The position numbers and the translations under genes were made by a program. From the NCBI GenBank assembly GCA_029883105.1, contig JAOUJT010000001.1:3035-67034 (forward strand): a stretch of 64,000 bases of DNA, written 5' to 3'. Below are positions 1 through 37,828 of this stretch, piece by piece. The number at the start of each line of letters is the position of its first letter. The stretch's first letter is position 1. The notes under the pieces were generated by a model. That model did not search any database. It was not told the origin of the DNA and worked only from the letters and a program-made list of their open reading frames with translations. This DNA is from Gammaproteobacteria bacterium. Lineage in GTDB: Bacteria; Pseudomonadota; Gammaproteobacteria; Thiohalospirales; Thiohalospiraceae.

Positions 1-51
1 ATAATTAGATTCGGAGACGGGAACACTTTCTATCTATCACAGAGGAGTTCT

Positions 52-920: not shown

Positions 921-929
921 TCTAAACAT

Positions 930-976
930 CCTCCTGATCACCTTTACGGTGGTTGGGAGGTAACCCTTTATTTTTT
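930..976 (+). terminator. rho-independent terminator, copy 1 of a tandem pair
   Basis: 13-bp stem CCTCCTGATCACC / GGTGGTTGGGAGG with three G-U pairs, so it folds only in + sense RNA. 5-nt loop, then TTTATTTTTT. Confidence 0.75.
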
Positions 977-979
977 CTT

Positions 980-1025
980 CTCCTGATCACCTTCGTGGTG
1001 GTTGGGAGTCTAACCTTTATTTTTT
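980..1025 (+). terminator. rho-independent terminator, copy 2 of a tandem pair
   Basis: Near-identical duplicate: CTCCTGATCACC-TTCGT-GGTGGTTGGGAG followed by TTTATTTTTT. Confidence 0.75.
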
Positions 1026-1033
1026 GATTTTAT

Positions 1034-1048
1034 CCCGTTAAATTAACC
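1034..1048 (+). promoter_or_regulatory. class-1 conserved motif CCCGTTAAATTAACC (candidate phage promoter)
   Basis: Same 15-mer at 17594-17608, a one-mismatch copy at 38811-38825, and a 14-mer at 47532-47545. Lies just after the terminators and upstream of the packaging operon. Confidence 0.5.
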
Positions 1049-1378
1049 TAGAATAGGTTCCTTGAAGGGTATATATGGAACATTCCCGTGAGGGATCCTA
1101 GGGAGGGTCTTTAGGGATCCTCTTAGAGATACCTTTAGATACCCTTTTAATACTCCCCTATATTCTATTATTATTAATAGATAACAACAGTGATAGATGA
1201 TCCCCTAAAGGATAGTATAGGGGGATATTTTTCTCCTTCAAAGGGGAGGGCACAGGGGATAATTCAACGGGGTCTTTTTATTCGGAGACTAACACGAACT
1301 CTAAGATTTCCAAGCGCGTCTGGGAGTCAACTTCAAACATTATCCCTCAAAATTCAATTTTAAAGGTATTTACAAGAT

Positions 1379-1837
1379 ATGAACAACGATGGCACAAATA
1401 TACAGCCAAGAGACGGAGGAACATCCGCCGGTAAGAAGTTAATAGCAAACTCTCGTAGGTCTAGAGCCAGACTGGAAGAGCTTGACTTTGATCCTTTAGA
1501 AAAACAAGTAATGCTCTACAGGAGATTAGTCAAAGAAGACGAATGGTGGGAGAATCTCAAGGCAGGTACCTCTGTCGTAGATGTCGATGCAGATGGTAAG
1601 AAGAAAAAGACTCTGAGATACTCTGGGATAGCTCACGCTGCTATATTAGCACAGATGCAAAAGATAGGAAATGATCTCATGAGGTATGGCTACGGTCGTG
1701 TGCCTGAGAATGTAGGTTCAGGACTTGAAGCTCCACCTCCTCTGCAGATAGGTCTTACAGGAAGTAAGGCTCAAGGAGCTCTCCAGAGCATCGTTATCGA
1801 TGTGTCCCCTAAGGTAATCAATGATGACGAAGACTAA
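1379..1837 (+). CDS. putative small terminase subunit
   Basis: 152-aa basic/acidic ORF immediately upstream of the large terminase. Call is by position only; no diagnostic motif recognised. Confidence 0.4.
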   Translation: MNNDGTNIQPRDGGTSAGKKLIANSRRSRARLEELDFDPLEKQVMLYRRLVKEDEWWENLKAGTSVVDVDADGKKKKTLRYSGIAHAAILAQMQKIGNDLMRYGYGRVPENVGSGLEAPPPLQIGLTGSKAQGALQSIVIDVSPKVINDDED

Positions 1838-2000
1838 AGCTAAGGGTATCATGTATTGTCCTATCTGTGAATCAAACCTTGTGGCTACTAACTTTCAAGA
1901 AGTTGAAGAAGGTGAGCACGATGGCTATATCTATGTACATGATGCAAACACGGTTCACACTGATGAAGATTTAGAAGCACTTGAGAATGGTGTCCAGTGA
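1821..2000 (+). CDS. small CxxC protein (59 aa, below ORF-track cutoff)
   Basis: ATG at 1821; translation MMTKTKAKGIMYCPICESNL...ENGVQ. Its stop TGA overlaps the GTG start of the large terminase (GTGA), which suggests translational coupling. Confidence 0.45.
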   Translation: MMTKTKAKGIMYCPICESNLVATNFQEVEEGEHDGYIYVHDANTVHTDEDLEALENGVQ

Positions 2001-3346
2001 TTGAGCTACACCCAGGTCAATCGGATGTCTACTCAGACCTCTTTATTGAGAAATCAATAAGGAATGCTGTTGTATGTGCTTCCCGTGGATGGGGTAAATC
2101 ATACTTCGCGACTGCAACTGCAACAACAGCTGCGTATGAACTCATGGCATTAGACCCATCTGTGCCGAATAAGAATGTTTATATCGTAGCTCCTACATAT
2201 GACCAAGTAACTGATATCTACTATCCAATACTAGCCTACGATTTCGGTCTTGAGTCTATAGCAATAAGTAGCTCAAGAGACAGAGGTAAATTTATATTCG
2301 CAAATAACGTCGAATTGCGAATGATCTCGTTCGAAGCTATTGAGAGGCTACGCGGTAAAGGTTCTTATTTTGTAGTTAATGACGAGATGTCCTCTTGGGC
2401 TAAAGGCATTGGGCCTAAAGAGGCTTGGGAATCAGTAATAGAGCCTTGTATTACAACTCGATGGAGTCCTAAGCGAGCAGCATTTTTCAATGCCCCTTCT
2501 TGTGGAAGATCTCTAACAATTTCTACACCAAAGGGATATAACTTCTTTCATGAGATATATCACTATAATGAGAGCGATGATCTTTGGGGTTCCTACCATT
2601 TTGACTATAAATCATCTCCCTATCTGGATCCTGATGAAATTGAAAGGGTTAAGTCGACAATAGACCCTATTAAGTTTGCCCGAGAGTATAAGGCATCATT
2701 TGTCGATTCTGGAAATAGTGTCTTTTATTGTTTTGATAGAGATAGACATGTTTCAAAGGAGATTGTAGACTTCGTCCCAAAAGACTCTGATCTACCAGGT
2801 GAAGATGTGCATGTATGTATCGACTTTAACGTGGGGATAATGGCCTCAGGTATCTTTGCTGTAAGAGGTAAACAAGTCCAGTTTATAGACGAGATTCAGG
2901 GACAACCTGATACCGAATCTCTGGCAGTTACCCTGAAGAAGAGATATATAGACAAGGGACACAATGTCTATGCCTACCCTGACCCTACAGGCAATAGTAG
3001 AAAGACTTCAGCGGCTGTAGGACGTACTGACTTTACTATTCTCGCTAGCTACGGCATTAATATACGAGCTAGACAGAAGTCACCACCGATTATTGATAGT
3101 GTAGCAGCTGTAAACAAACAATTATTGACAGCCTCTGGACATGTCTCTATGTATGTACACCCTCGGTGTCAGAACATAATAAAGTCTCTAGAGCGTACTT
3201 CGTGGCTGGATAACAACCCCGATAGCGCATCTATAGATAAGAAAGAAGGTGTCGAGCATCATTCAGACGGTATTCGATACGCTGTTGAATATCTCTTCCC
3301 TGTACGGAAGGGTGGAAAGACTGTTTCACGTGGATTCAATTTCTAA
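1997..3346 (+). CDS. terL: terminase large subunit
   Basis: Walker A-like ASRGWGKS, Walker B-like YFVVNDE, and a C-terminal nuclease-like region (VCIDFN...). 449 aa, positioned at the head of the morphogenesis genes. Confidence 0.9.
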   Translation: MIELHPGQSDVYSDLFIEKSIRNAVVCASRGWGKSYFATATATTAAYELMALDPSVPNKNVYIVAPTYDQVTDIYYPILAYDFGLESIAISSSRDRGKFIFANNVELRMISFEAIERLRGKGSYFVVNDEMSSWAKGIGPKEAWESVIEPCITTRWSPKRAAFFNAPSCGRSLTISTPKGYNFFHEIYHYNESDDLWGSYHFDYKSSPYLDPDEIERVKSTIDPIKFAREYKASFVDSGNSVFYCFDRDRHVSKEIVDFVPKDSDLPGEDVHVCIDFNVGIMASGIFAVRGKQVQFIDEIQGQPDTESLAVTLKKRYIDKGHNVYAYPDPTGNSRKTSAAVGRTDFTILASYGINIRARQKSPPIIDSVAAVNKQLLTASGHVSMYVHPRCQNIIKSLERTSWLDNNPDSASIDKKEGVEHHSDGIRYAVEYLFPVRKGGKTVSRGFNF

Positions 3347-3359
3347 TAGGATTAATAAA

Positions 3360-3584
3360 ATGACCGACAATATAATACCTTTCAAAAAATTCGAAGGTGT
3401 AACTGCAAAAGAGGCTTTAGAAAGTTCTCTTAATACTGGCCTTGACGATGTTATCGTTCTGGGCTGGAAAGACGATATTCTATATTACGCTGCGTCGAAA
3501 ATGAGTTCTGCTGATGCTAACTGGATGTTAGATAGTACAAAAGCAATGCTCCTCAACCGATGTAGCTTTCCAAGCGAGGACTAA
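3360..3584 (+). CDS. hypothetical protein
   Basis: ATG at 3360 just after the terL stop. The longer track ORF (3249) overlaps terL and is unlikely. Confidence 0.55.
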   Translation: MTDNIIPFKKFEGVTAKEALESSLNTGLDDVIVLGWKDDILYYAASKMSSADANWMLDSTKAMLLNRCSFPSED

Positions 3585-3585
3585 A

Positions 3586-4176
3586 ATGGCACGTTCAAAA
3601 ATAACGAATATATCGAATGACCTTACCAGTGATGGTGGCGGCGTTCTTATATCGCTTATCCAAGGGGAACAAGACGAGTTTCCCATCACACTTAACTTTG
3701 TGGATGTAGTATCTAACACGTATACTTTTGAAGCTGTCTTGATTGAAGGTGAGAATGATGGTTCAGGGCAGAGACCTGCAACAATACGAGCAACAAGCCC
3801 TAATAAAGCTGTCCTTACTGTGCGTGTACCCTTAGATAAGGGCGTCTGGAGTGCTGCTGTGACATATCTCTTCAATGATTACGTAGAGTTCGGTGGCAGC
3901 ATCTATATAGCCTCAGGGGCTCCTTCTATCAGTATTGATCCTGTAGCTGACCCTGACAATTGGACGCCTCATGTGGAGAACCGAGTGTTTATTCAATTCG
4001 GTAGTGCTCTCTCAGTAACACCTGCGTATGCAGTACAACCTGCTGTAGGTCTGCCTGTCTATGGTTTCCTTGAAATGCGTGTCACAGAACCTAACATAGG
4101 AGCTTACACTCGCACATGGAAGCCTCTGAGAGGTCTTGTAGAGTTTCTATTTAGTCCGACTGCGCAGGTGCCATAA
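3586..4176 (+). CDS. virion-associated protein with CBM5/12-like carbohydrate-binding motif
   Basis: VWSAAVTYLFNDYVEFGGSIYIASG...DPDNWTP resembles the W..x..Y..GD.V.Y.G..Y.A....P...W chitin-binding type-3 pattern. Confidence 0.45.
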   Translation: MARSKITNISNDLTSDGGGVLISLIQGEQDEFPITLNFVDVVSNTYTFEAVLIEGENDGSGQRPATIRATSPNKAVLTVRVPLDKGVWSAAVTYLFNDYVEFGGSIYIASGAPSISIDPVADPDNWTPHVENRVFIQFGSALSVTPAYAVQPAVGLPVYGFLEMRVTEPNIGAYTRTWKPLRGLVEFLFSPTAQVP

Positions 4177-4178
4177 TT

Positions 4179-4715
4179 ATGACGGTTGTTCTGAAGATAT
4201 CTCAAAGTGATATCGCTACATCTGTTGAGAAACAAGAATTGTCAGCAGGTTACACAGAACAAGCTGTCACAGTTGAGGCCCTAGGGAAAGACCTATCGGG
4301 AGTAGAGGAGAGATTCTCTCCCGATATAGCCATTGAGAAGGTCGAGAGAAAGAATGTAGATACGCCTTTGCAAGTCTCTCCTGCTCTAGAAGGTAGTAAT
4401 ATTCCTCAAGAGATGACAGCAGATGTAGCTACAAAGGAATCTGTTCAGACGATCCCAAAAGGGAAGCCTGTTATGGTTATCAGCACACCAACACGCGACA
4501 ATACATTTGTCGAAAAAAGCCTTGCTGAAATAAGCCTCGATAAATCTATTATTTACGAGCACAATTTAGATCTTCCTGTTGCAGGAGAAATCACTGCTAA
4601 CAGTGAGACAACAGATGTTATTATAAATGGTTCTGGTATCAGAAAACAAGGGAAGTATGATTCATACGCAGTACAGGGATATGTGAAAGACGAATACTGG
4701 AGAATTAATAGATGA
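4179..4715 (+). CDS. hypothetical protein
   Basis: 178-aa ORF tightly packed between neighbours. Its stop overlaps the next start. Confidence 0.55.
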   Translation: MTVVLKISQSDIATSVEKQELSAGYTEQAVTVEALGKDLSGVEERFSPDIAIEKVERKNVDTPLQVSPALEGSNIPQEMTADVATKESVQTIPKGKPVMVISTPTRDNTFVEKSLAEISLDKSIIYEHNLDLPVAGEITANSETTDVIINGSGIRKQGKYDSYAVQGYVKDEYWRINR

Positions 4716-7700
4716 CCGATATCCTTACAAGAGCAGCCAAAGGTGACCTCTTAGAGCATTTTGAAATTGATGCTAATTTCACTAATCTGAATAACGACAA
4801 AATAGAGACTTCTCTGCTAGGTCTCACTGAAGGTAAGATCCCTCTACTAGGCCCAGGAGGGCTCTTTCCAGAGTCTGTGTTTTCATCAGTAGGAGGTTTA
4901 TTCACTGAAGACGCAAGTAACAATATAGTTGGTGGCACAGGTTCTGGTGCATCACTAACTACCGGTACTTACAATTTCTTCGCCGGAAGTAATGCGGGAA
5001 ATCTGTTACAGAGTGGCAGAGATAATATAGCTATAGGATATAGGTCTCTATCAGTCAACCTTGTTAATAATAACAATGTAGCCATCGGAAGTGCTGCTTT
5101 ACGATTTGCTACTGGTGCAGCATTAACCGCTCTAGGCCCTTATGCAGGTAATAAAATATCTTCTGGTAGCAACAGTATTGCTATTGGTTGGGCTGCTCTA
5201 GGACAAATAGATGCAACTTCAGCTTCTATAACAGGGTCAGGAAATGTAGGTATGGGCTTATACGCTGTCGGTGGATTATCCACAAACCCTACAACTCTAC
5301 ACACTAATTTAGGTGTGGGAAATTATGCGTTATCCGATCTACAAACAGGGGGATTTAACACGGGATTAGGCACCCAAACCCTAGAAACTATTACAACTGG
5401 TCTTGGAAACACAGCTATAGGGGATAGAGCCGGTAGGAACTTAACTAGTTCAAGTTCTTATAATGTAATGATAGGGTTTCGAGCCGGGCCAGGTACCGGT
5501 GCTAATGTACATAATAAATTATATATTCATAACAATGTGTCAAGCACGCCTCTGATTTACGGTGATTTTGCAATTTCAAAGATCACAATCAATGGGGATT
5601 TTGATGTTACTGGTGCATTTACCTCTTTAGGTATAGATGATAATGCAACAGGAGAACGGTTGCAGATAGCTGATACCTTGTCTAGTTTTGGCGCTTCAGG
5701 TGTTTTCTACGGACTAATACATCCAGCGAATGATCAGGGCATTACTATAGCAGGAGGTAATGCACCCGCGAAAGGAGGTAACATAGAGCTAGGAGGTGGT
5801 ACTCATGTTTCTATTGCAGGGGATATCCGTATTCGCTCAGGCGCTAATTCTGTCTTCACTTGGGACGAATCTTTAGGCTCTCTCACACTTTCTACAGGGG
5901 CAGGAGTTAAAACTACAGCTCTTACTATCAACGCTTCTCAGCGTGCTACATTTAGTGGTGATGTGAGGTTATCAGGTGATACTCCGACCTTGTCTATAAA
6001 TGACGTGGTATCGGTATCTGATACCGCGATGCAAACATACATCTCACTACAACGGGCTGGGGCAGAGAAAGGATGGTTAGGCTTTGGTTCTGGAGCTAAC
6101 ACACACCTAAGCATTGTTAATAATCTTGGCGAGATAAGGTTATCTTCTAATGGAGTTACTGCACTAACCTTAGATGCTTCTCAGGATGCTACTTTCGCAG
6201 GAGCTGTAACTGTACAAGGAGTTTTCACTTCTCTGGGCATAGATGACAATGCCTCTAGCGAGCGTCTTCAAATAGCTGATGGGGATATAGTTCTCGGAGG
6301 TTGGCATGATGCAAACTATACAGTAAAAAGAGGAATAGATAATAGAATTTTAATTTTTGAGGGAGGCGTTACGTCTGCAGGTAGTGCAAGGTTACTACTA
6401 TATGGTGCGACAGAAACAACTGGTGCTGGTGATTTTGCTTTAAAGTCAGGCTTTAATACTGTCTGCTTATGGGATGAGTCAGCAGGAGCACTAACTCTGA
6501 GTACGGGAGCAGGAGCTAAAACTGCTGCGCTTACCCTAGACGCATCACAAAATGCTACATTTGCAGGTACTGTTGACGGCCGCGACGTAGCAGCAGACGG
6601 TGCGGTATTAGACTCTTTAGTGGTGACATCTGCACCAAATATTCCTGCTCGCAATGCTGTACTAAATAAAGAACCTGTCAGTCAAGGTGAGTCTACCCGT
6701 ACTGGTATGAGTTCTACAATCTATACAGGTACTTCTAGTGCTAATCCGGTAGCCTCTGGTATTGATATGGCTACTGGTGAATTCGGAGGACTAGTCTGGA
6801 TAAAGAGTAGAAATACCGTAAGTAATCATGCTCTATTTGATACAGTTAGAGGAACTACCCTTGAACTTAAAAGTAACAGTAGTGGAGTAGAAGTTATTAA
6901 TTCAGATGCTCTAACTGCTTTCACCTCTACAGGATTTAGTCTAGGAGCTGATGCTAATGTAAACTCTATCGGTAATACCTATATAGCATGGTCATGGCAG
7001 ACTAATAAGAAAATAACTGGTGTTACTAATAGAAATAAATCTTATACTTGCCACTATAATCCTGACATGGGGTTTTCAATTGTCAGTTATGTGGGTGATG
7101 GTGTTGCTGGTCATGAGATACCACATCATCTAGGTGTATCTCCTGAACTATCAATCTTCAAAAATATAACAAGTTCGAATAACTGGATTTTGCAGGGGAA
7201 AGATATCGGGAATTCTGAAAGCGGGGACTATATTCTTTTAAACGCTACTAATACTCTCACGAACACTACATCGGTCAAGTCTATTTTTACGGAAGAAACC
7301 GTGAGTCTTGGAATAGCGAGCTATAATACTTCGGGTGTAAGTAATATTGCTTACCATTTCTCTTCAGTAGAGGGTGTTTCTAAAGTTGGTAAGTATATTG
7401 GTACAGGCGCTATTGGCAATTACGTGGAATGTGGTTTTACACCAGCATTTGTGATGATTAAAAATATAACAACTGCTGAAGATTGGCAAGTGTTAGATGT
7501 CATACGTGGAGGTGGAAACTTATTACAAGCCAATACTACTTCAGCGGAACAATCTGTTGTGCTACTAACTATTAATGCTCAAGGTTTTATTCTACTTGGT
7601 AGTGGAGGGACTAATAAACTCAATGATGAATATATATTTTTAGCCTTCTCCTTAGCCACTTCAGATGCTACAAAATCATGGACAAATTATAGTTATCCAA

Positions 7701-8953
7701 CTACTGCTGATACACTCAGTATTGCACAAGATACGTTAATTTCATTTGCTGAAGGATTTAGCGCAGTTGGTCAAACAGATACTCAGGAGAATGTCGGTGC
7801 AGGTGTAACTCATACGCTTGGTGTCGGGCATGAAAATAAACACTACTATATCTACAAAGATAAAGCTGGCGCATTCGGTGTTACCGAGAATCGACCACTG
7901 GAAGACTCTGATAAGTGGGGTGATAGATCACCATCTGATGCTACCTTACGTACTACCTCAAGGCATTTTGATTACGAGAGTGATACAGGAGTTGTGTTAG
8001 CAAGTGGCGAAAACTCTACTAACTATGCGTATAATGCATTTAATAAAGATATAAATGACATTATTACAGTAGGTAGTTACTGGCAAATTGCGTCCTCTAC
8101 AATATCTTGGTTACAGTACAAGCAAACCGAGAAACGAATTCTCAAATCATGGAGAATAAAAGCACATGGAGACTCTACCGAATTACCTTCACGACTAATC
8201 ATCCAAGGCTCAAATGATGGTCTTAATTGGATTAATATTGATACTACGTATTCAGCTTCTAATTACGTTGGGAGTCTGCTTAATTTGTGGGGAGATCTGC
8301 AATCTACTGCAGACAATACTGTAGCCTATTTATACCATAGAATTTATATCACAGCTAATAACGGTGATCCTACATATACAGGTTTTAGTGAGTTAGAATT
8401 TAACACTATTCTCCCATCAGATCGTTTTGATGTAGCTGAAGGTGTACTTTATAACTCTGCTGGTTCTCCTATTGCTAGAACTTATCTCGCTGAGTTCCGT
8501 ACTGATGACAATGGCGGCGTAATTAATAATACAATCCGTAACTTTACTCCAGCTAAGCAAAAATTCACTGAAGCTGAGATTCAAGGGAAGTTAAAAGTTC
8601 ATGATGAAATTGAGAATAGGGGTATCTGTACGGCATGGGTGAACTTCGATGGTACTCAGAATCCTCCTTTGATACTGGATAGTTACAATGTAAGCGATGT
8701 AGTTGATTTAGGTGTTGGAGCTTACAAAATTATATTTGAAACTCCGATGGATTTACCTGCTTATACAGTCGCTGGTTACGCACAACATGCGGAGAGTGTT
8801 ACAGATTCTAGTTTCAATATACGTGGTTACGGGAATTCTATCACTAAACAGTCTGTGACTGTTCAATCAACTGTGGTAAACGAGACATCATCTGCGAGAA
8901 CTGATTTAGGCGCAGTATGTGTATCTATATTTGGAGGTAAGAAAATACTATGA
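4712..8953 (+). CDS. tail fibre / receptor-binding protein with internal repeats and a discoidin-like domain
   Basis: 1413 aa, Gly/Ser/Thr/Asn-rich. Repeated blocks FTSLGIDDNA.(G/S)ERLQIAD and WDES.G.LTLSTGAG.KT.ALT..ASQ.ATF.G. F5/8-type-C-like segment WRIKAHGD...LIIQGSNDGLNW...FSELEFN. Confidence 0.75.
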   Translation: MTDILTRAAKGDLLEHFEIDANFTNLNNDKIETSLLGLTEGKIPLLGPGGLFPESVFSSVGGLFTEDASNNIVGGTGSGASLTTGTYNFFAGSNAGNLLQSGRDNIAIGYRSLSVNLVNNNNVAIGSAALRFATGAALTALGPYAGNKISSGSNSIAIGWAALGQIDATSASITGSGNVGMGLYAVGGLSTNPTTLHTNLGVGNYALSDLQTGGFNTGLGTQTLETITTGLGNTAIGDRAGRNLTSSSSYNVMIGFRAGPGTGANVHNKLYIHNNVSSTPLIYGDFAISKITINGDFDVTGAFTSLGIDDNATGERLQIADTLSSFGASGVFYGLIHPANDQGITIAGGNAPAKGGNIELGGGTHVSIAGDIRIRSGANSVFTWDESLGSLTLSTGAGVKTTALTINASQRATFSGDVRLSGDTPTLSINDVVSVSDTAMQTYISLQRAGAEKGWLGFGSGANTHLSIVNNLGEIRLSSNGVTALTLDASQDATFAGAVTVQGVFTSLGIDDNASSERLQIADGDIVLGGWHDANYTVKRGIDNRILIFEGGVTSAGSARLLLYGATETTGAGDFALKSGFNTVCLWDESAGALTLSTGAGAKTAALTLDASQNATFAGTVDGRDVAADGAVLDSLVVTSAPNIPARNAVLNKEPVSQGESTRTGMSSTIYTGTSSANPVASGIDMATGEFGGLVWIKSRNTVSNHALFDTVRGTTLELKSNSSGVEVINSDALTAFTSTGFSLGADANVNSIGNTYIAWSWQTNKKITGVTNRNKSYTCHYNPDMGFSIVSYVGDGVAGHEIPHHLGVSPELSIFKNITSSNNWILQGKDIGNSESGDYILLNATNTLTNTTSVKSIFTEETVSLGIASYNTSGVSNIAYHFSSVEGVSKVGKYIGTGAIGNYVECGFTPAFVMIKNITTAEDWQVLDVIRGGGNLLQANTTSAEQSVVLLTINAQGFILLGSGGTNKLNDEYIFLAFSLATSDATKSWTNYSYPTTADTLSIAQDTLISFAEGFSAVGQTDTQENVGAGVTHTLGVGHENKHYYIYKDKAGAFGVTENRPLEDSDKWGDRSPSDATLRTTSRHFDYESDTGVVLASGENSTNYAYNAFNKDINDIITVGSYWQIASSTISWLQYKQTEKRILKSWRIKAHGDSTELPSRLIIQGSNDGLNWINIDTTYSASNYVGSLLNLWGDLQSTADNTVAYLYHRIYITANNGDPTYTGFSELEFNTILPSDRFDVAEGVLYNSAGSPIARTYLAEFRTDDNGGVINNTIRNFTPAKQKFTEAEIQGKLKVHDEIENRGICTAWVNFDGTQNPPLILDSYNVSDVVDLGVGAYKIIFETPMDLPAYTVAGYAQHAESVTDSSFNIRGYGNSITKQSVTVQSTVVNETSSARTDLGAVCVSIFGGKKIL

Positions 8954-9336
8954 TAGCTTATAATCAAGGAAATGGGCAAATTGCTATTTGCTCTCAAGTA
9001 TCCAGTGTGCCTGAGGGTGCTCAATATATTGAAACTCATGTAGCTCCCATGGATAAACTATTTCGATCAGCATGGAGACTAGGTGTTGATTCAATTGAGA
9101 CTGATCTGTCCGGAGCTAAAATAATTGCTCATAATATGCGTCGAGCAAAACGAGAGATTGACTTTGCGCCTTATGACGAAATTATTGCTAAGCAGATTCC
9201 AGGACATGATGCAATAGCTGCTGAAGCTGCTAGAGCTGATATACGAACAGCAGATGCGTTACTGCAAAGTAACATAGATGCTTGTTTGGACGAGAACACC
9301 CTACGGGGTGTAATAGAACCACTAATAACTGTATAG
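8950..9336 (+). CDS. hypothetical protein (possible fibre-associated)
   Basis: 128-aa ORF with start overlapping the fibre gene stop. No diagnostic motif. Confidence 0.5.
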   Translation: MIAYNQGNGQIAICSQVSSVPEGAQYIETHVAPMDKLFRSAWRLGVDSIETDLSGAKIIAHNMRRAKREIDFAPYDEIIAKQIPGHDAIAAEAARADIRTADALLQSNIDACLDENTLRGVIEPLITV

Positions 9337-9345
9337 GAAAATAAA

Positions 9346-9600
9346 ATGGCTTTAACAGAAACAAGAATACCAGATCGAGTAATAACTCTTGAAGATGGGC
9401 AAATCGAAATACGTTACGCTAATCGAATCTTTCGGAACGGTAACTACGTCACCACAGACTACGACGTCGAGCGTATCGATGTTGGCGAAGATGTGTCAGG
9501 GAAAGAAGCATTGGTTCGTGATGTAGTGAACGGAAACGTTTTCACCGCCGAGCGTATAGCAGCTAGACAGGCAGTCAAAGATGCTGAAGATCGGCAGTAG
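9346..9600 (+). CDS. hypothetical protein
   Basis: 84-aa ORF with ATG 9 nt after the previous stop. Confidence 0.5.
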   Translation: MALTETRIPDRVITLEDGQIEIRYANRIFRNGNYVTTDYDVERIDVGEDVSGKEALVRDVVNGNVFTAERIAARQAVKDAEDRQ

Positions 9601-9964
9601 TGTACTACTATGCTCTCTGATGGGGACAGTCCTAGCGGATGACCTAGGGATAGGCTTCATAGATCGGACGGTCCATCTTCAAAGTTCAGACTCTGTCTTG
9701 AATGAAAACCATCATGGTCTCTACCTACGCTACAAGAGACTACGAATAGGAGAATACCGAAATAGCTATAATATGCAAAGTAACCTGTTAAATTATGAAC
9801 TCAGTGAGCATTCAAATTATAGTACATTTGCAGGCATTGCTGATGGGTATCCTCAGAATAGACATCTCGGAGAGTACCGAATGATGTTCGGAGTAAGGGT
9901 TCGCCTAGGATTCTTGCGACTATTGATAACACCTGCTTTTATTGCGAGCAGTTACGAATTTTAG
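9581..9964 (+). CDS. small secreted protein with C-terminal aromatic signature
   Basis: Signal-peptide-like N-terminus MLKIGSSVLLCSLMGTVLA|DD. Alternating hydrophobic pattern; last residue is Phe (…SSYEF). Confidence 0.5.
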   Translation: MLKIGSSVLLCSLMGTVLADDLGIGFIDRTVHLQSSDSVLNENHHGLYLRYKRLRIGEYRNSYNMQSNLLNYELSEHSNYSTFAGIADGYPQNRHLGEYRMMFGVRVRLGFLRLLITPAFIASSYEF

Positions 9965-9972
9965 GAGAACCT

Positions 9973-10350
9973 ATGGTTATTGTATGTGACGATGACATTT
10001 CATGGTTAACCTTCTTCAGCACTTGTGCAGAGAATACATTTGAAGATCTTATAATGACACAGTCAGGGAACTCACTCCTTGAGGTGTTAGAAGCACGGGA
10101 AGAGCAACCTTGTCTTGTTTTTCTAGATTTGAATATGATTCGAAAGACAGGAATTGAAACGGCTATTGAAATTAAGAAAATAAATCCCACTATTCCTATA
10201 ATAGTGATGAGTGCAGACATAACAAGAGATAGACTCAATGACGTCTACAAAACAGGTCTACAGATGTTCCTTCGAAAGGAGTATAATGTAGAGTATTTCT
10301 CACGGAGGTTGGCTAGTATCAAGGAGACCTACCTCCACCACTGTCAATAA
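9973..10350 (+). CDS. stand-alone CheY-like response-regulator receiver domain protein
   Basis: AGGAGA RBS. Motifs: VIVCDDD (acidic pocket), LVFLDLNM (phospho-acceptor Asp at nt 10126-10128), IIVMSA (S/T), MFLRKE (Lys). 125 aa with no output domain. Confidence 0.8.
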   Translation: MVIVCDDDISWLTFFSTCAENTFEDLIMTQSGNSLLEVLEAREEQPCLVFLDLNMIRKTGIETAIEIKKINPTIPIIVMSADITRDRLNDVYKTGLQMFLRKEYNVEYFSRRLASIKETYLHHCQ

Positions 10351-10363
10351 GCAGGACGGCGAT

Positions 10364-10792
10364 ATGTTTGAGACCCTATTTTCTGAGGTTAATAATGAAA
10401 TCATAAAAACTATCGGAGTTGTACTGGTGGGTGTTGTTATTGTGTTCACCAAGAGCCTATATCGTCAAATTTTGAGGTTACAACTATATGTTTCTAGAAA
10501 ATGTGAAGAACGTCGACACGCTCGACTCAAGAAACTTGCAAAACTTCTATGGGATTTGTCTATGGAGGATCAAGTGATGAATGCTCTTGAAGCAGTACAG
10601 CATAACAACGATAGAGAACATGAAAGAGTACGTAAGGACGGTGCTCGGACACTTATGATTTTAGAAGGATTCTTGACGGATAACAAAGCGGAGAACGTCG
10701 AAATACGACAAGCTCTCCTTGAAATAAACCAAACGCAACGTGAAATAATGCGCCAACTTATGGCGGGTGTTGCAAACAAAGAGGCATATTAA
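10364..10792 (+). CDS. membrane-anchored coiled-coil protein
   Basis: N-terminal TM segment IIKTIGVVLVGVVIVF followed by a charged helical region. Confidence 0.5.
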   Translation: MFETLFSEVNNEIIKTIGVVLVGVVIVFTKSLYRQILRLQLYVSRKCEERRHARLKKLAKLLWDLSMEDQVMNALEAVQHNNDREHERVRKDGARTLMILEGFLTDNKAENVEIRQALLEINQTQREIMRQLMAGVANKEAY

Positions 10793-10797
10793 AAAGA

Positions 10798-10970
10798 TGA
10801 GTGCAGAACCATTAACTGTAAATGACTGTGAATTAATTGTACAGTTATTAGATCGAGTATCTATTACAGGACATCAAGAACGAGCGGCTATGAATCAAAC
10901 AGTCGACAAGATCTTACGTCTTCGAGAGAGTCTAGCAAATCCTCCCGAAATCCCTGATCCCGACGCCTAA
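10798..10970 (+). CDS. hypothetical protein (57 aa)
   Basis: ATG at 10798 after the previous stop. The track ORF start at 10767 overlaps the upstream gene. Confidence 0.45.
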
Positions 10971-10993: not shown

Positions 10994-11009
10994 TGGAGAG
11001 GCCTCTCCA
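10994..11009 (+). terminator. palindromic hairpin (weak terminator candidate)
   Basis: TGGAGAGGCCTCTCCA is a perfect palindrome followed by TCTCTTT. The U-tract is poor. Confidence 0.3.
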
Positions 11010-11364: not shown

Positions 11365-12975
11365 ATGACTGTAGCAAACGCCGCTGATGTCACCAGAACA
11401 GTAGCAGATCCTAACGCTGAATACCTATCAATGCGTGATATATGGGATCGAAACAGGGCTGTATGCGGCGGCGAGCGCTACGTAAAGGCCTTAGATCAAC
11501 GCTTAAGTCCTAGCATGCAAAACATGCTTATTCCTTTTTCCCCATCTATGACGCAGCCTCAATATGACTTCTATCGTTTAGAGGCTGAGTTACCTGGGAT
11601 TGTGTCTCAATTTTCAAAGATGTTGGTAGGAGGTCTTCTGCGCAAGACCCCTGTACTAACTCTACCTGACGACATGCCTGAAGGTGTCCGTGAGGAGGCT
11701 CACGACTGGATCATGAATAGCTTCACCCAGGACAATTCATCAATCACATCCTTTCTAGACACCGCCTTGTGGGAAGAGATTCAAACAGGACGTGCCTGGG
11801 TATATGTAGATTATCCTTTTGTTGAAGATGCAGATTCACTTACAAATGCAGACTTCAGAGAACTTGCTCCATTTCCTATCCTATGGAAGCCTGAAGAGAT
11901 TGTGAACTGGAAACTTGGAAAGGATGAGAAAGGAAATGCAGTCCTAAAACAGATCATTGTACGGACACTAGTCGAACAGTATGGTGATACTGAAGACACT
12001 GAATTTCATCCTACATTTAAAGATACAGTTTATGTTCATGAACTCGACAGCGTCGGATATTATCAGATTCGCGTATTCGAAAGAGCTGATGATGTACAAG
12101 ACGCACCGGTCGTTAATGGAAATCCCTACAAGAAACAATCCGATAGTAAGGTGGCTTTTCCTCTTGTAGACACGATCACTGGGATCAAAGCAAATGGCGA
12201 ACGTTTGACACGAATCCCTGCATGGCCTCTTAATGGTAGCATGAAGATTACTGATCCAATCATTTCCGCTATCGTAGACAAAGAAATCAGTCTATATAAT
12301 AAAATCAGTCGCCGTAATCACTTACTATATGGTGCTGCTACATACACTCCTGTGATATTCTCCGACATGGGTGAAAAAGAGTTCGACGAAATTGTAGCGA
12401 GTGGACTGGGAAGTTGGCTGCGGTTACCTATGGAGGCTAAAGTAGAGGTTCTAAAGACTCCTACAGATGCTCTGAAAGATATGGAGAAAGCGATTGCAAG
12501 TGCTATTGAAGAGATGGCACGCTTAGGGATTCGTATGTTAAGTCCTGAGACTGCTCAATCAGGGATTGCTCTTGAGATTCGGAATGCTGCCCAGACTGCT
12601 CAGCTAGGCTCCTTAAATAACAAGGTGTCTGCGATCATGTCTAAGATTATTGCTTTTATGCTGAATTGGCGGTATGATTTAGAATTGACAGATTCTGATG
12701 TTGAATTTGACCTTTCATCTGACTTTAATCCCATCCCACTAGGTGCTGACTGGATTAGACTAGCAACAGAATGGTATGAGAACGGTCTACTTCCACGTAG
12801 CGTTTGGCTTCAGATTCTGAAACAGAATGACATTGTCTCTCCTGACTATGATGATGAAGACGGTCAGACAGAGATTATTGAAGACGACCTGATACAAGGT
12901 CAGGCGAAGGCCGAAAATGAAGATATCCAAGATCAACTTGACAAAGAACTGGAAGATGAAGATTTAGATGCCTAA
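11365..12975 (+). CDS. portal protein
   Basis: 536 aa. N-terminal pattern IWDRNRAVCGGERYVKA...QYDFYRLEAELPGIV...LVGGLLRKTP resembles the DUF4055-type portal signature. Acidic C-terminus; followed by the MuF-domain gene. Confidence 0.75.
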   Translation: MTVANAADVTRTVADPNAEYLSMRDIWDRNRAVCGGERYVKALDQRLSPSMQNMLIPFSPSMTQPQYDFYRLEAELPGIVSQFSKMLVGGLLRKTPVLTLPDDMPEGVREEAHDWIMNSFTQDNSSITSFLDTALWEEIQTGRAWVYVDYPFVEDADSLTNADFRELAPFPILWKPEEIVNWKLGKDEKGNAVLKQIIVRTLVEQYGDTEDTEFHPTFKDTVYVHELDSVGYYQIRVFERADDVQDAPVVNGNPYKKQSDSKVAFPLVDTITGIKANGERLTRIPAWPLNGSMKITDPIISAIVDKEISLYNKISRRNHLLYGAATYTPVIFSDMGEKEFDEIVASGLGSWLRLPMEAKVEVLKTPTDALKDMEKAIASAIEEMARLGIRMLSPETAQSGIALEIRNAAQTAQLGSLNNKVSAIMSKIIAFMLNWRYDLELTDSDVEFDLSSDFNPIPLGADWIRLATEWYENGLLPRSVWLQILKQNDIVSPDYDDEDGQTEIIEDDLIQGQAKAENEDIQDQLDKELEDEDLDA

Positions 12976-15900
12976 TGTAAATACAGCGATCTATGATGGT
13001 AAAGTAGATCGCGCTGCTATGCTACGCCTGTACGAACAGAATACCCATGGAAAGATAGAAGCTGTCTTTGATGGTCATGTAGTTCGTCTAGATAAGCTAG
13101 TGAAGAAGTCTAAAATTAATTCAAAGACTTTCAAAGACTTTCAAAAGAATCTTGATATCGAATTGAAGAAGACCTACAAGGAAGCCTTTAGTGTTTCTAA
13201 AAGGTCACTGCTTGACATGGCAGCAGATCAAATGTCGTTTACATACCAGAATTTAGATGCTGCATTAAGTAAGGTGTGGCGCACAAAGAGACCCCAAAGA
13301 CGTATCTCTGAAGATATTGTCTTAAAACAACCACTCTACGAGAATAGAACTCTTGAGATGGGTTGGAAAGGGGTCTCTAAAAACGAACGAAAAAGACTTG
13401 CGCAAGTGATTCGTAAAGGTATTGCAGACGGTGATACCGAAGAGATCATCGCCAGGAATATCAGAAGAGGCAATGTTCATAAAATAACCCGTAATCAATC
13501 GCGATCGTTAGTGACCACTGCAATGACGAGTGTTAATGCTCAGGTCGATCATAGTGTCTATGTCGAGAATGAAAAAGCACTTCAGGGTTGGCAGTATGTA
13601 GCTGTTCTTGACTCAAGTACTACACAGATATGTGCCTCCCGTGATGGTAAGATATATGGCGTCGATGACACAGCGTACCTCCCTCCTGCTCATTGGCAGT
13701 GTCGTTCGACAATAATCCCTGTGGTTAAGAAGTGGGAAGATCTTGCAAGTCTAGAGAGCGTTGCTCAGCTGCGTAGAAGAAATATGGCAAAACTAAGCCC
13801 TGCTCAGATAGCTAGATACGATGGCCAGACGCCTCTGAAAGAAACATATAATGCCTGGCTCCTGAGACAGCCTTCAAAGATCCAATATACGCATCTAGGT
13901 GATTGGCAGAAAGTAGACCTTTTTAACAAAGGGAAGATACATCTTTCTAAATTTACTTCTCCGGACGGTAAAACATTAGGGATTCGTCAATTGCGTCGGA
14001 TGACAGATTCTGAGTATGCACCTCCAACAGGTTCTCAACGTTTTGCATTAGCAAAGGAAAAACTAGATGCGATGAATCTTGGTGCTATCTCTCCTGATGA
14101 TTTTATAAACGACCGTAAGATGACAAACACCCTAAAGAATTTCTACATTCTTCAATCAAAAGAATTGGACGGTACTTTATCACTTACTAACTATAGAGGA
14201 AATCTCATAGGAACAAAGAGAGCACAGAAACGAAGAGTGCTTACAAGACCTCCCAGAGAAGAACAGGTGATTTTCAATCCGGTCACAGGTCGTTATGAAG
14301 ATTCAAGAATGTTTCAGCCAACACCTTCTGTTCTCGTGAACAATATGAGGCTTGTGAATGAGAGTAGTATTCTTAAGGTCGCAGATAAAGAATACATCGA
14401 TCGTTTTATTGGAAGTCTCTCTGAGTATATGAGTGTAAATGAAAGAGCTGTCGTGGCTGATAATCTGAGAATTCTCTTCACAAGATATCGAAAGAACCCC
14501 GAGAATTGGGTTAACTTTAAAGCCATTTCACAAGCACAGATTAAGTTTGACGTAATGAATGTCTCTGACACAATCGAGACACAGCTCAGAAGCGATGCGA
14601 ATCTACTGAAGAAGCTTAAGCAGGATAATTACATTGACCCTGTCCTAGGTCCTGTTACCTTTGAAGATCTTGACAAACACTTCATAAGTAATATATTAGA
14701 ACGTAATAAATGGGAAGATCGTATTGCTCCTAAAATCTCAGAGGAACTCCGTGACGTTTTCGATCACAACATACCATTTAAAATACGAAGACGTTTGAGT
14801 GATTCAAATTTACAGCAGTTCTATCTAAAATTTGCACATAGACTTTCTCTGGCAGACAGTCCTGATGTAGACCAGCTAGCGGCTGCTTTAGGTCGTGATC
14901 TGTACAATCTTGCGAACTATAATGGCAATCGTCGACAATGGTATGACCTAGGTAAGAAACTTTTAGAGTCGAATAATAAATTCTTCGAACTAGAAACCTT
15001 TGGAGTTCAGAAAAGACGTATGAAAAGTAGAATGAGTGGTCAGCTATTTGGACCTTATTACGACACGTTCTCTTACAACATTCGCATCACAGACCCTCGT
15101 ATCCAGAGGTATTCTCAGCTAAATAGAAAGATTGAGGTAGGTCTCAGGATCGGTGTCACAGATGTCGGTAATCGACTGGTCTTTCGAGAAGGTTATAAAA
15201 CGTACTTCATCAAAAACCGTCTTGGCCTCTACACAGACACTCGGATACCAATTACGTCAACAAGCAGTTTTATGGACTTTCCAGAAGGTCTTATAGACAA
15301 AGAAATGGCCGCATCTTTGAACTGGGCAGCTAAGACTGAGTATCGAATCGATGAGGACTTCTACGACTCGATCATGCATATAATGAACTTCACAGACGAT
15401 AAAGGTAAGGCAAAATACTTCGATGATATAAACGAGTACCGTAAATATATAGCAGCTAGAGGTGATGCGTATGAAAGATTTAAAGCGATGGAGTGGTTTC
15501 GTAAGAGAGGAGTTGCTTTTAGTAATCATCCTTTTGTTGACCACCGTGTGCGTATCTATGACCGTGGCTTTATCGGTCCTCAGTCTGGTGAAACTTTTAG
15601 ACCTTTCCTGAATACTGCCAAGGAGAAAGTCTTAGGCATCGATAACTTTAGAAATCTGCAAGATCAAATTGGAGCTTTCTTAGGAGGTCTCGATGACTAT
15701 TTTGAAGGTCGTTATAACTCTCTAAGTGTGACAGGGCGACAGAAGATTGCAATAAAATGGCGTAAAGAGCTGGTTACTATTGGAAATCATATGATACGAA
15801 ATAAGCCAAATGATGTCCGTAAGATTCTTCAGTCAGACATGGTGGCTAGAATCGAAGGTGAAGAATTAGGTAAGTTTCTCAGATTCGCAATTGAAGTTGC

Positions 15901-17587
15901 TAAGATAGATAATTATCTAGACGGTGTCTATAACAAAACCTCTCTTCAAAAGCTTTCTAAATACAAGACAGCTCTCGCTCTTGAACAAGACGCATCGTCT
16001 TCAGGTGCCCAGATCATTGCGCTAACCACACGAAATAAGCAATTAGCAGAGCTTAGTAATGTTGTCCCTACAAACCAGAAACGACGACTCTACGACGAAA
16101 TAGCAGCTGCCACGTTCAACGATCCAGCGTTTAGAAAACTAAATGAGAAGTTTGGACTTACTGAGAAAGATTTACGCAAGGCTGCGAAGGCTCAGAACAT
16201 GGTAACCTTTTATGGAGCAGGAGAGAAGACAGGGATTCTGAACGTTGAAGGTAAATTGGCAAAAGTTCTTGAGAGACAACCTGGTACTCTCGTTGTGAAG
16301 GCCTCTGATCGCGACGTTGTCCTCAGTGAGATATCAGCACGCATTGCTCGTTATGAACGCTTTGATCCTGCTATTGCTGAAGAATTGAAAGTCCTTAGAA
16401 GCAATGTACGTGACATATTCAACAAAGGTCTTCATGTAGGGGATGACATCATGGAAGACTTATATTTCTTGGACCCCGCGACCAAAGATCTGGTGTTACA
16501 AATGACGCAAAACTACACAAAGGTCGTAACCCCTGATGATTTTCGGCAGATTGCTAAGATTATGAGTATGCATCTTGGCGAACAGGTTCCTATCTTGAAA
16601 GACTTTACAAAATATTTAGGGCGACTGGGTGAAGACTTTCTCATCAACGCTAAACCTTCTAAGAGTAGTTTTTCCTGGAAAGGTATTTTAAAGGAGCGGT
16701 TATTTGGTTCATCCCGTGATGGTTATAAGCTGTCGAAAGAAACCAGTAAGCTTCTGGGACTCCCTGCAAACACAGCTATCTCAAAGCAGATTCTGAGTAA
16801 GTTTGGCTTCTGGCGTCCTAATGGAACTCTCAGCCAGCTACTCTATGGAGTAAAGGATCCAGGAGATCGCAGAATAGGAGCTAAGTATTTCAAGATTCAA
16901 ATAACAAAATTTAAGAAAATCTTTTCAATCGAAGTTTTCAAAGCCAACAGATTGCCTAAAAGGTGGACAAACATCCCCTGGAAGAACTTCGATGGGAAGA
17001 CAATTGAGCAGAACTTTACGCAGACCTTCGAAGAGCGTCTGTTGTATAGAGATAAGGACGGTAACTGGGTTACGAATATTCTTCAAGTACCTCAAAAGAC
17101 GCAGGCGACTTGGTGGGAACAAATTCTCAATGATGCAGGAAATATTGACGATATTGCTGATGCTACAAAGGCTAGAACTGCCTATGCTGTAAATGGGAAT
17201 CACTCCAATGATGCTGTGATTGTCAAGCGATTCCATTTGTGGGGTAAGTCTGAAGATGTTCCTACTTCTACAATTCATGACGCTTTCTTTACTAATATCG
17301 CGGATATGTTAAAAGCACGGTCGGCTCTGCGTAAAATATATGCTGATGCTATGAAAACAAATGTTATAAAAGCAACTCTAGATGAGATGTTAGCGAGAGG
17401 TCTCCCTCGTGCACTTTATGACAAGTATTTGAATGAAGCCATTGAAATAGGCCTTATCCCTGTACCAGGAAGGTCTCGAGTAGGCGGCAAGCTACTAAAA
17501 GATACCGACATATTAAACTCTGAAGACATCTTAAAGAAGGTTAATGAAGTCTTTCAGGAAGATGCTTATTGGTACGGCGTGGGGTAA
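12968..17587 (+). CDS. minor head protein (MuF / SPP1 gp7 domain) fused to a T7-type single-subunit RNA polymerase domain; putative virion RNAP
   Basis: MuF signature GWQYVAVLDSSTTQICASRDGKIY...PPAHWQCRSTIIPV. RNAP motifs in canonical order: DHRVRIY..GPQSGETFRPFL, LEQDASSSGAQ (motif A), RKAAKAQNMVTFYGAG (motif B), TIHDAFFT (motif C). Confidence 0.85.
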   Translation: MPNVNTAIYDGKVDRAAMLRLYEQNTHGKIEAVFDGHVVRLDKLVKKSKINSKTFKDFQKNLDIELKKTYKEAFSVSKRSLLDMAADQMSFTYQNLDAALSKVWRTKRPQRRISEDIVLKQPLYENRTLEMGWKGVSKNERKRLAQVIRKGIADGDTEEIIARNIRRGNVHKITRNQSRSLVTTAMTSVNAQVDHSVYVENEKALQGWQYVAVLDSSTTQICASRDGKIYGVDDTAYLPPAHWQCRSTIIPVVKKWEDLASLESVAQLRRRNMAKLSPAQIARYDGQTPLKETYNAWLLRQPSKIQYTHLGDWQKVDLFNKGKIHLSKFTSPDGKTLGIRQLRRMTDSEYAPPTGSQRFALAKEKLDAMNLGAISPDDFINDRKMTNTLKNFYILQSKELDGTLSLTNYRGNLIGTKRAQKRRVLTRPPREEQVIFNPVTGRYEDSRMFQPTPSVLVNNMRLVNESSILKVADKEYIDRFIGSLSEYMSVNERAVVADNLRILFTRYRKNPENWVNFKAISQAQIKFDVMNVSDTIETQLRSDANLLKKLKQDNYIDPVLGPVTFEDLDKHFISNILERNKWEDRIAPKISEELRDVFDHNIPFKIRRRLSDSNLQQFYLKFAHRLSLADSPDVDQLAAALGRDLYNLANYNGNRRQWYDLGKKLLESNNKFFELETFGVQKRRMKSRMSGQLFGPYYDTFSYNIRITDPRIQRYSQLNRKIEVGLRIGVTDVGNRLVFREGYKTYFIKNRLGLYTDTRIPITSTSSFMDFPEGLIDKEMAASLNWAAKTEYRIDEDFYDSIMHIMNFTDDKGKAKYFDDINEYRKYIAARGDAYERFKAMEWFRKRGVAFSNHPFVDHRVRIYDRGFIGPQSGETFRPFLNTAKEKVLGIDNFRNLQDQIGAFLGGLDDYFEGRYNSLSVTGRQKIAIKWRKELVTIGNHMIRNKPNDVRKILQSDMVARIEGEELGKFLRFAIEVAKIDNYLDGVYNKTSLQKLSKYKTALALEQDASSSGAQIIALTTRNKQLAELSNVVPTNQKRRLYDEIAAATFNDPAFRKLNEKFGLTEKDLRKAAKAQNMVTFYGAGEKTGILNVEGKLAKVLERQPGTLVVKASDRDVVLSEISARIARYERFDPAIAEELKVLRSNVRDIFNKGLHVGDDIMEDLYFLDPATKDLVLQMTQNYTKVVTPDDFRQIAKIMSMHLGEQVPILKDFTKYLGRLGEDFLINAKPSKSSFSWKGILKERLFGSSRDGYKLSKETSKLLGLPANTAISKQILSKFGFWRPNGTLSQLLYGVKDPGDRRIGAKYFKIQITKFKKIFSIEVFKANRLPKRWTNIPWKNFDGKTIEQNFTQTFEERLLYRDKDGNWVTNILQVPQKTQATWWEQILNDAGNIDDIADATKARTAYAVNGNHSNDAVIVKRFHLWGKSEDVPTSTIHDAFFTNIADMLKARSALRKIYADAMKTNVIKATLDEMLARGLPRALYDKYLNEAIEIGLIPVPGRSRVGGKLLKDTDILNSEDILKKVNEVFQEDAYWYGVG

Positions 17588-17593
17588 TAGAAC

Positions 17594-17608
17594 CCCGTTA
17601 AATTAACC
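17594..17608 (+). promoter_or_regulatory. class-1 conserved motif CCCGTTAAATTAACC
   Basis: Exact copy of the 1034-1048 15-mer. Lies in the gap between the MuF-RNAP stop and the scaffold gene. Confidence 0.5.
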
Positions 17609-17691
17609 CTGTTATTTAGTGTAACAAGAGTCTTAACAATTAAACGTGTTGCTGTGCGACACATAAATGAGCTGTGCTCAGGAAAAGAAAG

Positions 17692-37782: not shown

Positions 37783-37785
37783 CAA

Positions 37786-37828
37786 TTGCGCCATATGTGG
37801 TATCTTATATGAATAGGAATAATCCTAT
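37786..37828 (+). promoter_or_regulatory. class-3 conserved element, copy 1 (TTGCGC-N7-GGTATCTTATATGAATAGGAATAATCCTAT)
   Basis: 30-nt core is identical to the copies at 39915-39944 and 40331-40360. Contains the perfect inverted repeat ATAGGA-ATAA-TCCTAT (37813-37828). Ends about 22 nt before the next start codon. Confidence 0.55.

Follow-up and report, generated by a model that had tools for sequence, protein, structure and literature searches.

Why would a bacteriophage encode the receiver domain of a response regulator, with neither an output domain nor a kinase to phosphorylate it? The question is raised by a small gene, here called REC, at positions 9973-10350 (+) of a 64,000-nucleotide stretch of DNA (the window) from contig JAOUJT010000001.1. 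The contig was deposited within the metagenome-assembled genome (MAG) of a 'Gammaproteobacteria bacterium', although it looks like a complete phage genome. Bacteria sense their surroundings mainly through two-component signalling, and to our knowledge very few phage factors interfere with it. A phage receiver that lacks a kinase but keeps its phosphorylation site intact might serve to hijack signals or act as a decoy against host defence. The product of REC is a genuine, intact classical receiver with a complete set of predicted active-site residues.

The REC gene and its receiver domain

A first-pass annotation of the window, made from the letters alone, had described a 125-residue open reading frame (ORF) with a good ribosome-binding site and the landmarks of a receiver: an Asp-Asp-Asp stretch, a phospho-acceptor Asp, a conserved Ser/Thr position and a conserved Lys. 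Each of these was found where it had been placed. The features are as follows.

9963-9967 (+): Shine-Dalgarno-like AGGAG, 5 nucleotides (nt) upstream of the REC start codon, read directly from the sequence
9973-10350 (+): REC, an ATG-initiated ORF of 125 amino acids encoding a stand-alone classical receiver (REC) domain
9988-9996 (+): codons of Asp6-Asp7-Asp8; Asp6 and Asp7 are the predicted Mg2+-binding acidic pair and align with D12/D13 of CheY and D10/D11 of Spo0F
10126-10128 (+): Asp52 (GAT), the predicted phospho-acceptor in an invariant column, at the end of strand beta3 in the model; aligns with D57 of CheY and D54 of Spo0F
10210-10212 (+): Ser80 (AGT), the conserved Thr/Ser position at the end of strand beta4; Ser80-Ala81 align with T87-A88 of CheY
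10267-10278 (+): Phe99 (aromatic switch) to Lys102 (conserved Lys), strand beta5, aligned with Y106 and K109 of CheY
10267-10269 (+): Phe99 (TTC), aligned with Y106 of CheY
10276-10278 (+): Lys102 (AAG), invariant, aligned with K109 of CheY

The profile search that had been suggested as a check gave a clear answer. The protein matches the Pfam family PF00072 (Response_reg) with 51.1 bits (E 1.7e-13), well above the gathering score of 30.2, and the match spans residues 2-107 and profile positions 1-104 of 111. Residue equivalences were taken from an alignment with 15 single-domain relatives and, separately, from alignments with CheY of E. coli and Spo0F of B. subtilis. Asp7, Asp52, Gly60 and Lys102 are invariant in these alignments, and Asp6 is at least 90% conserved. 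Receivers with such a residue set catalyse their own phosphorylation from phospho-histidine or small-molecule donors (Bourret 2010, as cited in PMC7824862). Two common prolines are substituted, by Glu103 after the conserved Lys and by Ile56 in the beta3-alpha3 loop; the Lys-Glu pair also occurs in one aligned relative (P0078).

The AlphaFold2 model, calculated from a 16-sequence alignment, has a pLDDT of 93.3 and a pTM of 0.87 and replaces a poor single-sequence run (pLDDT 55). Its secondary structure elements follow the order beta1-alpha1-beta2-alpha2-beta3-alpha3-beta4-alpha4-beta5-alpha5, which is the (beta/alpha)5 fold that the first-pass annotation had named as the structural check. Foldseek comparison with the PDB returned receivers only, with a probability of 1.0 and a TM score of about 0.8; the single-domain phytochrome regulators Rcp1/RcpA match best, followed by Sln1-REC, Spo0F, NtrX-REC and CheY. 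All testable features of sequence and fold therefore place the protein in the receiver superfamily.

The reading frame stops directly after helix 5, and the next gene starts 13 nt further on in a different frame, confirming that the receiver has no output domain. A frameshifted fusion of REC with the downstream gene was ruled out by the differing frames, the clean stop and the separate call of the downstream gene. The codon usage of REC is typical of the phage (z -0.42), and a positive score is obtained in the annotated frame only. The JGI/Logan gene calls contain the receiver with PF00072. The flanking genes in the NCBI record are numbered consecutively (OEX12_00075 and OEX12_00080), so the receiver is absent from the GenBank annotation. 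REC thus exposes an annotation gap in the record of its own contig.

Absence of a cognate kinase and of a link to chemotaxis

We searched for kinase and phosphotransfer partners with Pfam scans, in which the coding-strand ORFs of at least 50 amino acids were concatenated into pseudo-proteins. No HisKA, HATPase_c, Hpt or CheA/W domain and no second receiver was found in these other ORFs. The gene at 537-920 recurs on a public Logan contig (L026; SRR7132771, 58 kb), which is 100% identical to positions 1-10920 of the window and adds 9.46 kb upstream of it. This upstream part and the gene for a 1413-residue fibre-like protein (4712-8953) were covered by precomputed Pfam calls, and neither contains a kinase-type domain: the fibre gene has DUF7483 only, and the upstream 9.46 kb yields genes for a peptide deformylase and an adenylosuccinate-synthetase-like protein and nothing else. 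Altogether the search covers all but about 0.7 kb of the 74,187-bp contig. The statement that the window holds no histidine kinase is thus borne out, also over the additional 9.46 kb, and the receiver is not part of a self-contained two-component system, as no kinase or Hpt protein is encoded in the DNA searched.

The description of the protein as CheY-like holds at the level of the superfamily and fails for CheY proper. With the best NCBIfam CheY model (NF041367) the protein reaches 31.4 bits, where 200 are required, and the NCBIfam receivers of ZraR, RprY and NtrC, weak matches too, still score above it. CheY entries of the PDB match by sequence at E 2e-4 or weaker. In addition, no cheA, cheW or MCP gene was detected by Pfam, either in the window or in the 9.46 kb upstream of it. 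The receiver is not a CheY orthologue, and nothing found here ties it to chemotaxis.

Relatives and age of the receiver

A word-indexed search of 5.8 billion proteins returned only the receiver itself, which is a singleton there, and a scan of IMG/VR for close relatives found none. Exhaustive HMMER searches against 1.84 billion cluster representatives gave non-self matches of which the best are 22-38% identical; the top one (E 2e-15) is a 370-residue protein aligned in three stretches. Within our protein library, 4249 proteins match at E<=1e-3, all through generic receiver-like alignments. Several PHROG families without assigned function match as well; with profiles of 227 to 1030 positions, they should consist largely of multi-domain proteins. 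The lack of any relative above about 38% identity, together with the phage-typical codons, speaks for a gene that selection has kept for a long time and against one captured recently.

Receivers of phages and other viruses are rare and already known, and by these comparisons the present one is highly divergent among them. In BFVD, 24 proteins match at E<=1e-3, mostly giant-virus hybrid kinases and a few phage proteins. The stand-alone phage receivers among them are CDS-30 of Alteromonas phage V22 (149 residues), listed as a 'CheY-like' class II auxiliary metabolic gene (PMC7289586), and a 'CheY-like receiver' of an uncultured member of Caudovirales (143 residues); a third stand-alone receiver, of 125 residues, lies just outside the 24 with a weaker E of 1.3e-3. 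CDS-30 of this phage (vB_AmeM_PT11-V22) and the Caudovirales protein are likewise phage-encoded, about 125-150 residues long and free of an output domain. The identity of CDS-30 to our receiver is about 19% in the structural alignment, and V22 is a myovirus whereas the present phage is a siphovirus. We found no functional test of a stand-alone phage receiver gene in the literature examined. The INPHARED records that match the receiver are mostly small or unannotated; the one record examined with its annotation (H1) was ruled out as a phage receiver, being a Salmonella chromosomal contig with the zraS kinase gene beside a response-regulator gene.

Among characterised proteins, Rcp1/RcpA, Spo0F, DivK and CheY share the size and the (beta/alpha)5 fold of the phage receiver and also lack an output domain. 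The Rcp1/RcpA type, partners of cyanobacterial phytochromes, has in common with it the Asp-Asp, Asp, Ser/Thr and Lys site and the aromatic switch, and provides the best PDB matches by both sequence and fold; the identities in the Foldseek PDB alignments are 16-25%. Unlike the Rcp1/RcpA type, the receiver is phage-encoded, has no cognate kinase gene nearby, carries Glu103 and Ile56 in place of the usual prolines and has no equivalog-level match to a named regulator.

REC lies at the end of a hypervariable cassette

The REC gene lies between the large terminase (TerL) gene and the portal gene, in a region with the following features.

1997-3346 (+): large terminase, conserved left anchor of the cassette; phrog_2; 57-62% identical in the related contigs L007, L015, L017 and L023
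3586-10970 (+): hypervariable cassette between TerL and the portal module, holding the 1413-residue fibre-like protein and small accessory genes including REC
4712-8953 (+): 1413-residue fibre-like protein with PHROG matches
9346-9600 (+): 84-residue accessory ORF; GenBank hypothetical protein OEX12_00075; weak PHROG match only
9581-9964 (+): 127-residue ORF with a signal-peptide-like N-terminus and the C-terminal residues YEF; partial match to phrog_3600 ('PagP'), E 9e-9
10364-10792 (+): ORFan of 142 residues, a single N-terminal transmembrane helix followed by a helical C-terminal portion; begins 13 nt downstream of the REC stop codon in a different frame
10767-10970 (+): 67-residue accessory ORF, the last gene of the cassette; no significant family match
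11365-12975 (+): portal protein, conserved right anchor of the cassette; phrog_145, E 4e-59

The IMG/VR collection contains 25 related contigs, whose portal proteins are 44-71% identical over the segment that aligns best. Conserved in these relatives are TerL, the portal and a small protein, a fusion of a MuF-like protein with an RNA polymerase, the scaffold and the capsid protein, and none of the 25 loci has counterparts of the window genes from 4179 to 10970. In two of them (L007 and L017) TerL almost directly adjoins the portal module with no cassette in between; in others the interval is filled by different large fibre-like proteins of about 830-1320 residues and by small genes. The receiver itself is absent from all 25 portal-anchored loci, as phmmer and a custom receiver hidden Markov model matched the window only. 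REC is therefore an accessory, moron-like gene at a syntenic site that the relatives leave without it. The first-pass annotation had placed it in an accessory islet (9346-10970) between fibre and portal genes. An accessory region does lie there; it is the tail end of the cassette at 3586-10970. Since the whole interval varies among the relatives, the receiver stands at the end of a hypervariable host-interaction cassette rather than in a private islet. The interval looks like a swap site for host-interaction genes in this group of phages.

A secreted protein and a membrane protein had been named as neighbours of the receiver. The membrane protein stands, as the product of 10364-10792 has one predicted transmembrane helix. 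The secreted protein would be encoded by 9581-9964, which is an uncertain gene because no public gene caller predicts it (neither JGI/Logan nor NCBI) and its codon usage is atypical (z -2.18). Its product is possibly an outer-membrane protein. We found no homologues of this ORF, and a paralogous relationship to the signal-peptide ORF at 37734-38135 was ruled out for lack of any similarity. The ORFan at 10364-10792 matches only itself among 5.8 billion proteins and has no match in Pfam, PHROG, PADLOC or the PDB. It contains the residues EHERVRKD and was considered as a minimal DHp/Hpt partner of the receiver; this idea was dropped, as none of the four databases supports it and no homologues were found. 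Neither neighbour offers a clue to how the receiver works.

Expression context

Three elements of the window bear on when REC would be expressed.

931-1025 (+): two tandem terminator-like repeats, each a hairpin followed by a T-run; 46-nt GC-rich copies
1034-1049 (+): promoter-like motif CCCGTTAAATTAACCT, directly after these repeats
10994-11009 (+): small GC-rich hairpin GGAGAGGCCTCTCC followed by AUCUCUUU in the centroid fold; weak candidate terminator closing the cassette

The double terminator-like repeats and the promoter-like motif that follows them at 1034, CCCGTTAAATTAACC(C/T), together occupy 931-1049 (repeat families D7 and D4). With up to 3 mismatches allowed, the motif CCCGTTAAATTAACCC occurs 5 times, where chance would give 0.3: 1034-1049, 17594-17609, 38811-38826, 47531-47546 and, on the minus strand, 1256-1271. 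Three of the five lie just 5' of gene blocks, that at 17594 preceding the scaffold and capsid genes. The motif is a candidate promoter for a phage polymerase, and 931-1049 may be the start of the late transcription unit that contains REC. Matches to sigma-70-like promoters are at background level (28 versus 26 expected). Beginning with the fibre gene, the genes up to the end of the cassette share one strand and are separated by gaps of only 9, -20, 8, 13 and -26 nt. The hairpin at 10994-11009 is not significant against shuffled sequences and was missed by the terminator scan.

Because of the position of REC, the tight gene spacing and the terminator- and promoter-like elements upstream, the simplest reading is that it would be co-transcribed with the late structural genes. 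The picture of an early host takeover is not supported by its position and gene spacing. Late expression would fit exclusion, protection of the progeny or the countering of defences triggered by structural proteins.

Further non-coding elements were observed. About 330 nt of non-coding sequence separate the repeats at 931-1025 from the putative small-terminase region. A 78-nt element occurs three times (37784-37861, 39900-39977 and 40316-40393) in copies that are 63-100% identical and run up to the start codons of small genes; it resembles a further class of promoter or leader. A 36-nt repeat at 45327-45362, 48452-48487 and 53333-53368, between genes of the replication module, consists of the short hairpin ATCGCTAGCAACGAT followed by GCCGGAAAAGTAACCG.

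Possible modes of action of the receiver

Since the phage has no histidine kinase or Hpt protein of its own, the receiver must draw its phosphoryl group from elsewhere; that of Asp52 would come from a host kinase, a host Hpt protein or acetyl phosphate. The receiver probably taps into a signalling pathway of the host. The interception of a host phosphorelay, suggested in the first-pass annotation, is plausible, and the examples given there, motility and envelope-stress signalling, find no direct support. Without an output domain only two modes are available to it, namely competition for phosphoryl groups, as a sink or decoy, or phosphorylation-dependent binding of a partner. We tentatively favour the first, in which the receiver would be produced alongside the late structural genes, become phosphorylated on Asp52 and compete as a decoy or phosphate sink, draining or blocking one host two-component pathway; it leads the other readings, though we hold it at slightly less than an even call. 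Phosphorylation, late expression and sink or decoy action are all steps that we infer. This mode is ranked first because it needs no specific interface beyond recognition by a kinase, and because DtcB provides a direct example. DtcB, of the bacterial defence system Detocs, is a stand-alone receiver proposed to buffer phosphate (bioRxiv 10.1101/2023.01.24.525353). The two are alike in being stand-alone receivers with an intact acceptor Asp. DtcB is bacterial and encoded in an operon with the kinase DtcA and the effector DtcC, whereas the phage receiver has no partner genes, and neither a kinase nor a PNP-type effector was found near REC by Pfam or PADLOC.

Several points weigh against a sink or decoy acting on the host. 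REC is known from one phage genome only, so that conservation across phages cannot be shown. Both usual prolines are replaced, by Glu103 and Ile56. Late expression would be unusual for a host-takeover factor. The sole hint to the host is the binning of the contig in a 'Gammaproteobacteria bacterium' MAG. In addition, no characterised single-domain regulator and no class of kinase partner stands out as specifically similar to the receiver. As similar unstudied genes exist in other phages and nothing here points to one particular pathway, the finding is a lead rather than a discovery.

The second mode, which we regard as possible but rather unlikely, is that of a phospho-switch adaptor. Phosphorylated by a host kinase, the receiver would bind a specific target, for instance the motor of flagella or pili, the adaptor site of a protease, a kinase or one of the phage proteins, as CheY, PilH/PilG, CpdR, DivK and RssB do; it ranks after the sink or decoy. 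Its purpose might be a late switch-off of the phage's own receptor, leading to superinfection exclusion or protection of the progeny. The switch residues Ser80 and Phe99 as well as Lys102 are intact, the top structural matches are single-domain regulators that work through protein-protein contacts, and REC lies near the fibre gene. Phages often place exclusion genes and morons near fibre genes, as with lom of lambda and llp of T5. A precedent is PIT4 of Pseudomonas phage LSL4, a small protein from an early gene that binds the kinase domains of host histidine kinases and disturbs two-component systems of the host; its interference with PilS/FleS is interpreted as infection exclusion (PMC10714779). 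The abstract of that study does not describe PIT4 as a receiver domain, whereas REC encodes a genuine receiver among genes that are probably late. Against the adaptor stands the similarity to CheY, PilH, CpdR and DivK, which is at the level of the generic domain only, and no target, host or receptor can be named.

A more specific form of the preferred sink, which we consider unlikely, and less likely than the adaptor, is a late phosphate sponge, a viral mimic of a signalling buffer, that would disarm either Detocs-like immunity or a pathway controlling the phage's own receptor. Narrower still is a pure anti-defence decoy, in which the receiver would mimic DtcB and absorb the phosphoryl groups of a Detocs-like system, so that the effector receiver is never activated; this we judge improbable. 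Mutation of the acceptor Asp of the stand-alone receiver DtcB makes Detocs toxic, consistent with buffering, and no phage inhibitor resembling DtcB is mentioned in the same preprint (bioRxiv 10.1101/2023.01.24.525353). The phage receiver has the same minimal architecture with an intact Asp, whereas PADLOC v2.0.0 gave no match at E<=0.1 with a release in which the presence of a DtcB model is uncertain. Many abortive-infection systems sense structural proteins, and late expression of REC would coincide with this.

A role outside any phosphorelay, as a receiver-fold enzyme or pseudo-receiver or as a factor in virion structure or assembly for which the fold is no more than a scaffold, is about as improbable. 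It would accord with the place of REC among structural genes and with the loss of both usual prolines, and divergent phage receivers never found with kinases have been described, such as the cREC of jumbo phages, a cyclic-phosphate- or ADP-ribose-processing, phage-encoded receiver fold never linked to histidine kinases (PMC7824862). However, the classical Pfam model is matched well above its threshold. The classical viral receivers in BFVD match at E 1e-6 to 1e-4 with TM scores of 0.7-0.85, and the 'cyclic-phosphate processing receiver' proteins match worse (E 2e-3 to 6e-2, TM 0.49-0.59). Compared with cREC, our receiver fits the classical profile and structures better and has no NAD+/ADP-ribose or RNA-end-processing neighbours, as no such genes were found nearby by Pfam, PHROG or PADLOC.

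Finally, a functionless passenger, that is a captured fragment of a bacterial response-regulator gene left intact by chance and without a role in infection, is hardly probable either: REC is indeed restricted to a single phage, where it occupies a site prone to recombination, and was skipped by the NCBI annotation, but a recent capture should leave a close donor (with the best match below 40% identity, no close cellular one is seen) and an old unselected insert should decay, so that the intact active site argues for function, as do the complete domain with precise boundaries, the good ribosome-binding site, the full set of catalytic residues and the codon usage adapted to the phage.

The phage and its host

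All genes of the window are on one strand. They encode TerL, the portal, the MuF-like head protein fused to an RNA-polymerase region, the scaffold, the major capsid protein and tail proteins including a 2573-residue tape measure, as well as a T7-like RNA polymerase, a primase-helicase, a class II ribonucleotide reductase, a ligase and a 5'-3' exonuclease. The source of the window is an uncultivated, marine-type siphophage, with Pelagibacter phage Kolga and Ruegeria phage DSS3_VP1 as distant relatives. By the portal protein, the closest cultured phages are the Pelagibacter phages Kolga and Aegir (48% identity), followed by the Ruegeria phages DSS3_VP1 and DSS3_PM1 (44%) and EBPR siphovirus 1 (42%); INPHARED holds no near-identical DNA. 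The nearest cultured phages infect SAR11 and Ruegeria. Scans of GTDB genomes with the portal and a PurZ-like protein gave no match from which a host could be inferred.

The gene directly 3' of the portal gene (12968-17587, +) encodes a 1539-residue protein with an N-terminal MuF/SPP1-gp7-like head-morphogenesis domain (Phage_Mu_F, phrog_241) and an RNA-polymerase region of the single-subunit type (Pfam RNA_pol, phrog_414). The fusion is 59-66% identical over its full length in six of the related contigs (L001, L004, L007, L010, L015 and L023). A separate T7-like RNA polymerase of 757 residues is encoded at 41530-43803 (+). The two genes together suggest a polymerase that is packaged in the capsid and ejected, here in a long-tailed phage.

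On L026, in the part upstream of the window, a short adenylosuccinate-synthetase-like protein of 373 residues (5327-6448 of L026) matches phrog_1211, whose label '2-aminooxy adenylosuccinate synthetase' we read as PurZ-like. An HD/YfbR-like deoxynucleotidase is encoded at 53819-54454 of the window, and the two proteins hint at a genome containing 2-aminoadenine (Z-base). The peptide deformylase gene lies in the same upstream part (1930-2520 of L026). The gene at 49644-50591 (+) encodes a 315-residue protein with a signal peptide and an NMT1_3 (TAXI/TRAP-type solute-binding) domain, possibly an auxiliary transport gene. A gene for a SegE-like GIY-YIG endonuclease (55317-55781, +) adjoins the primase-helicase gene; just downstream of it, a perfect 30-nt tandem duplication at 55948-56007 makes the residues EPPKKGGVEG appear twice in a small membrane protein.

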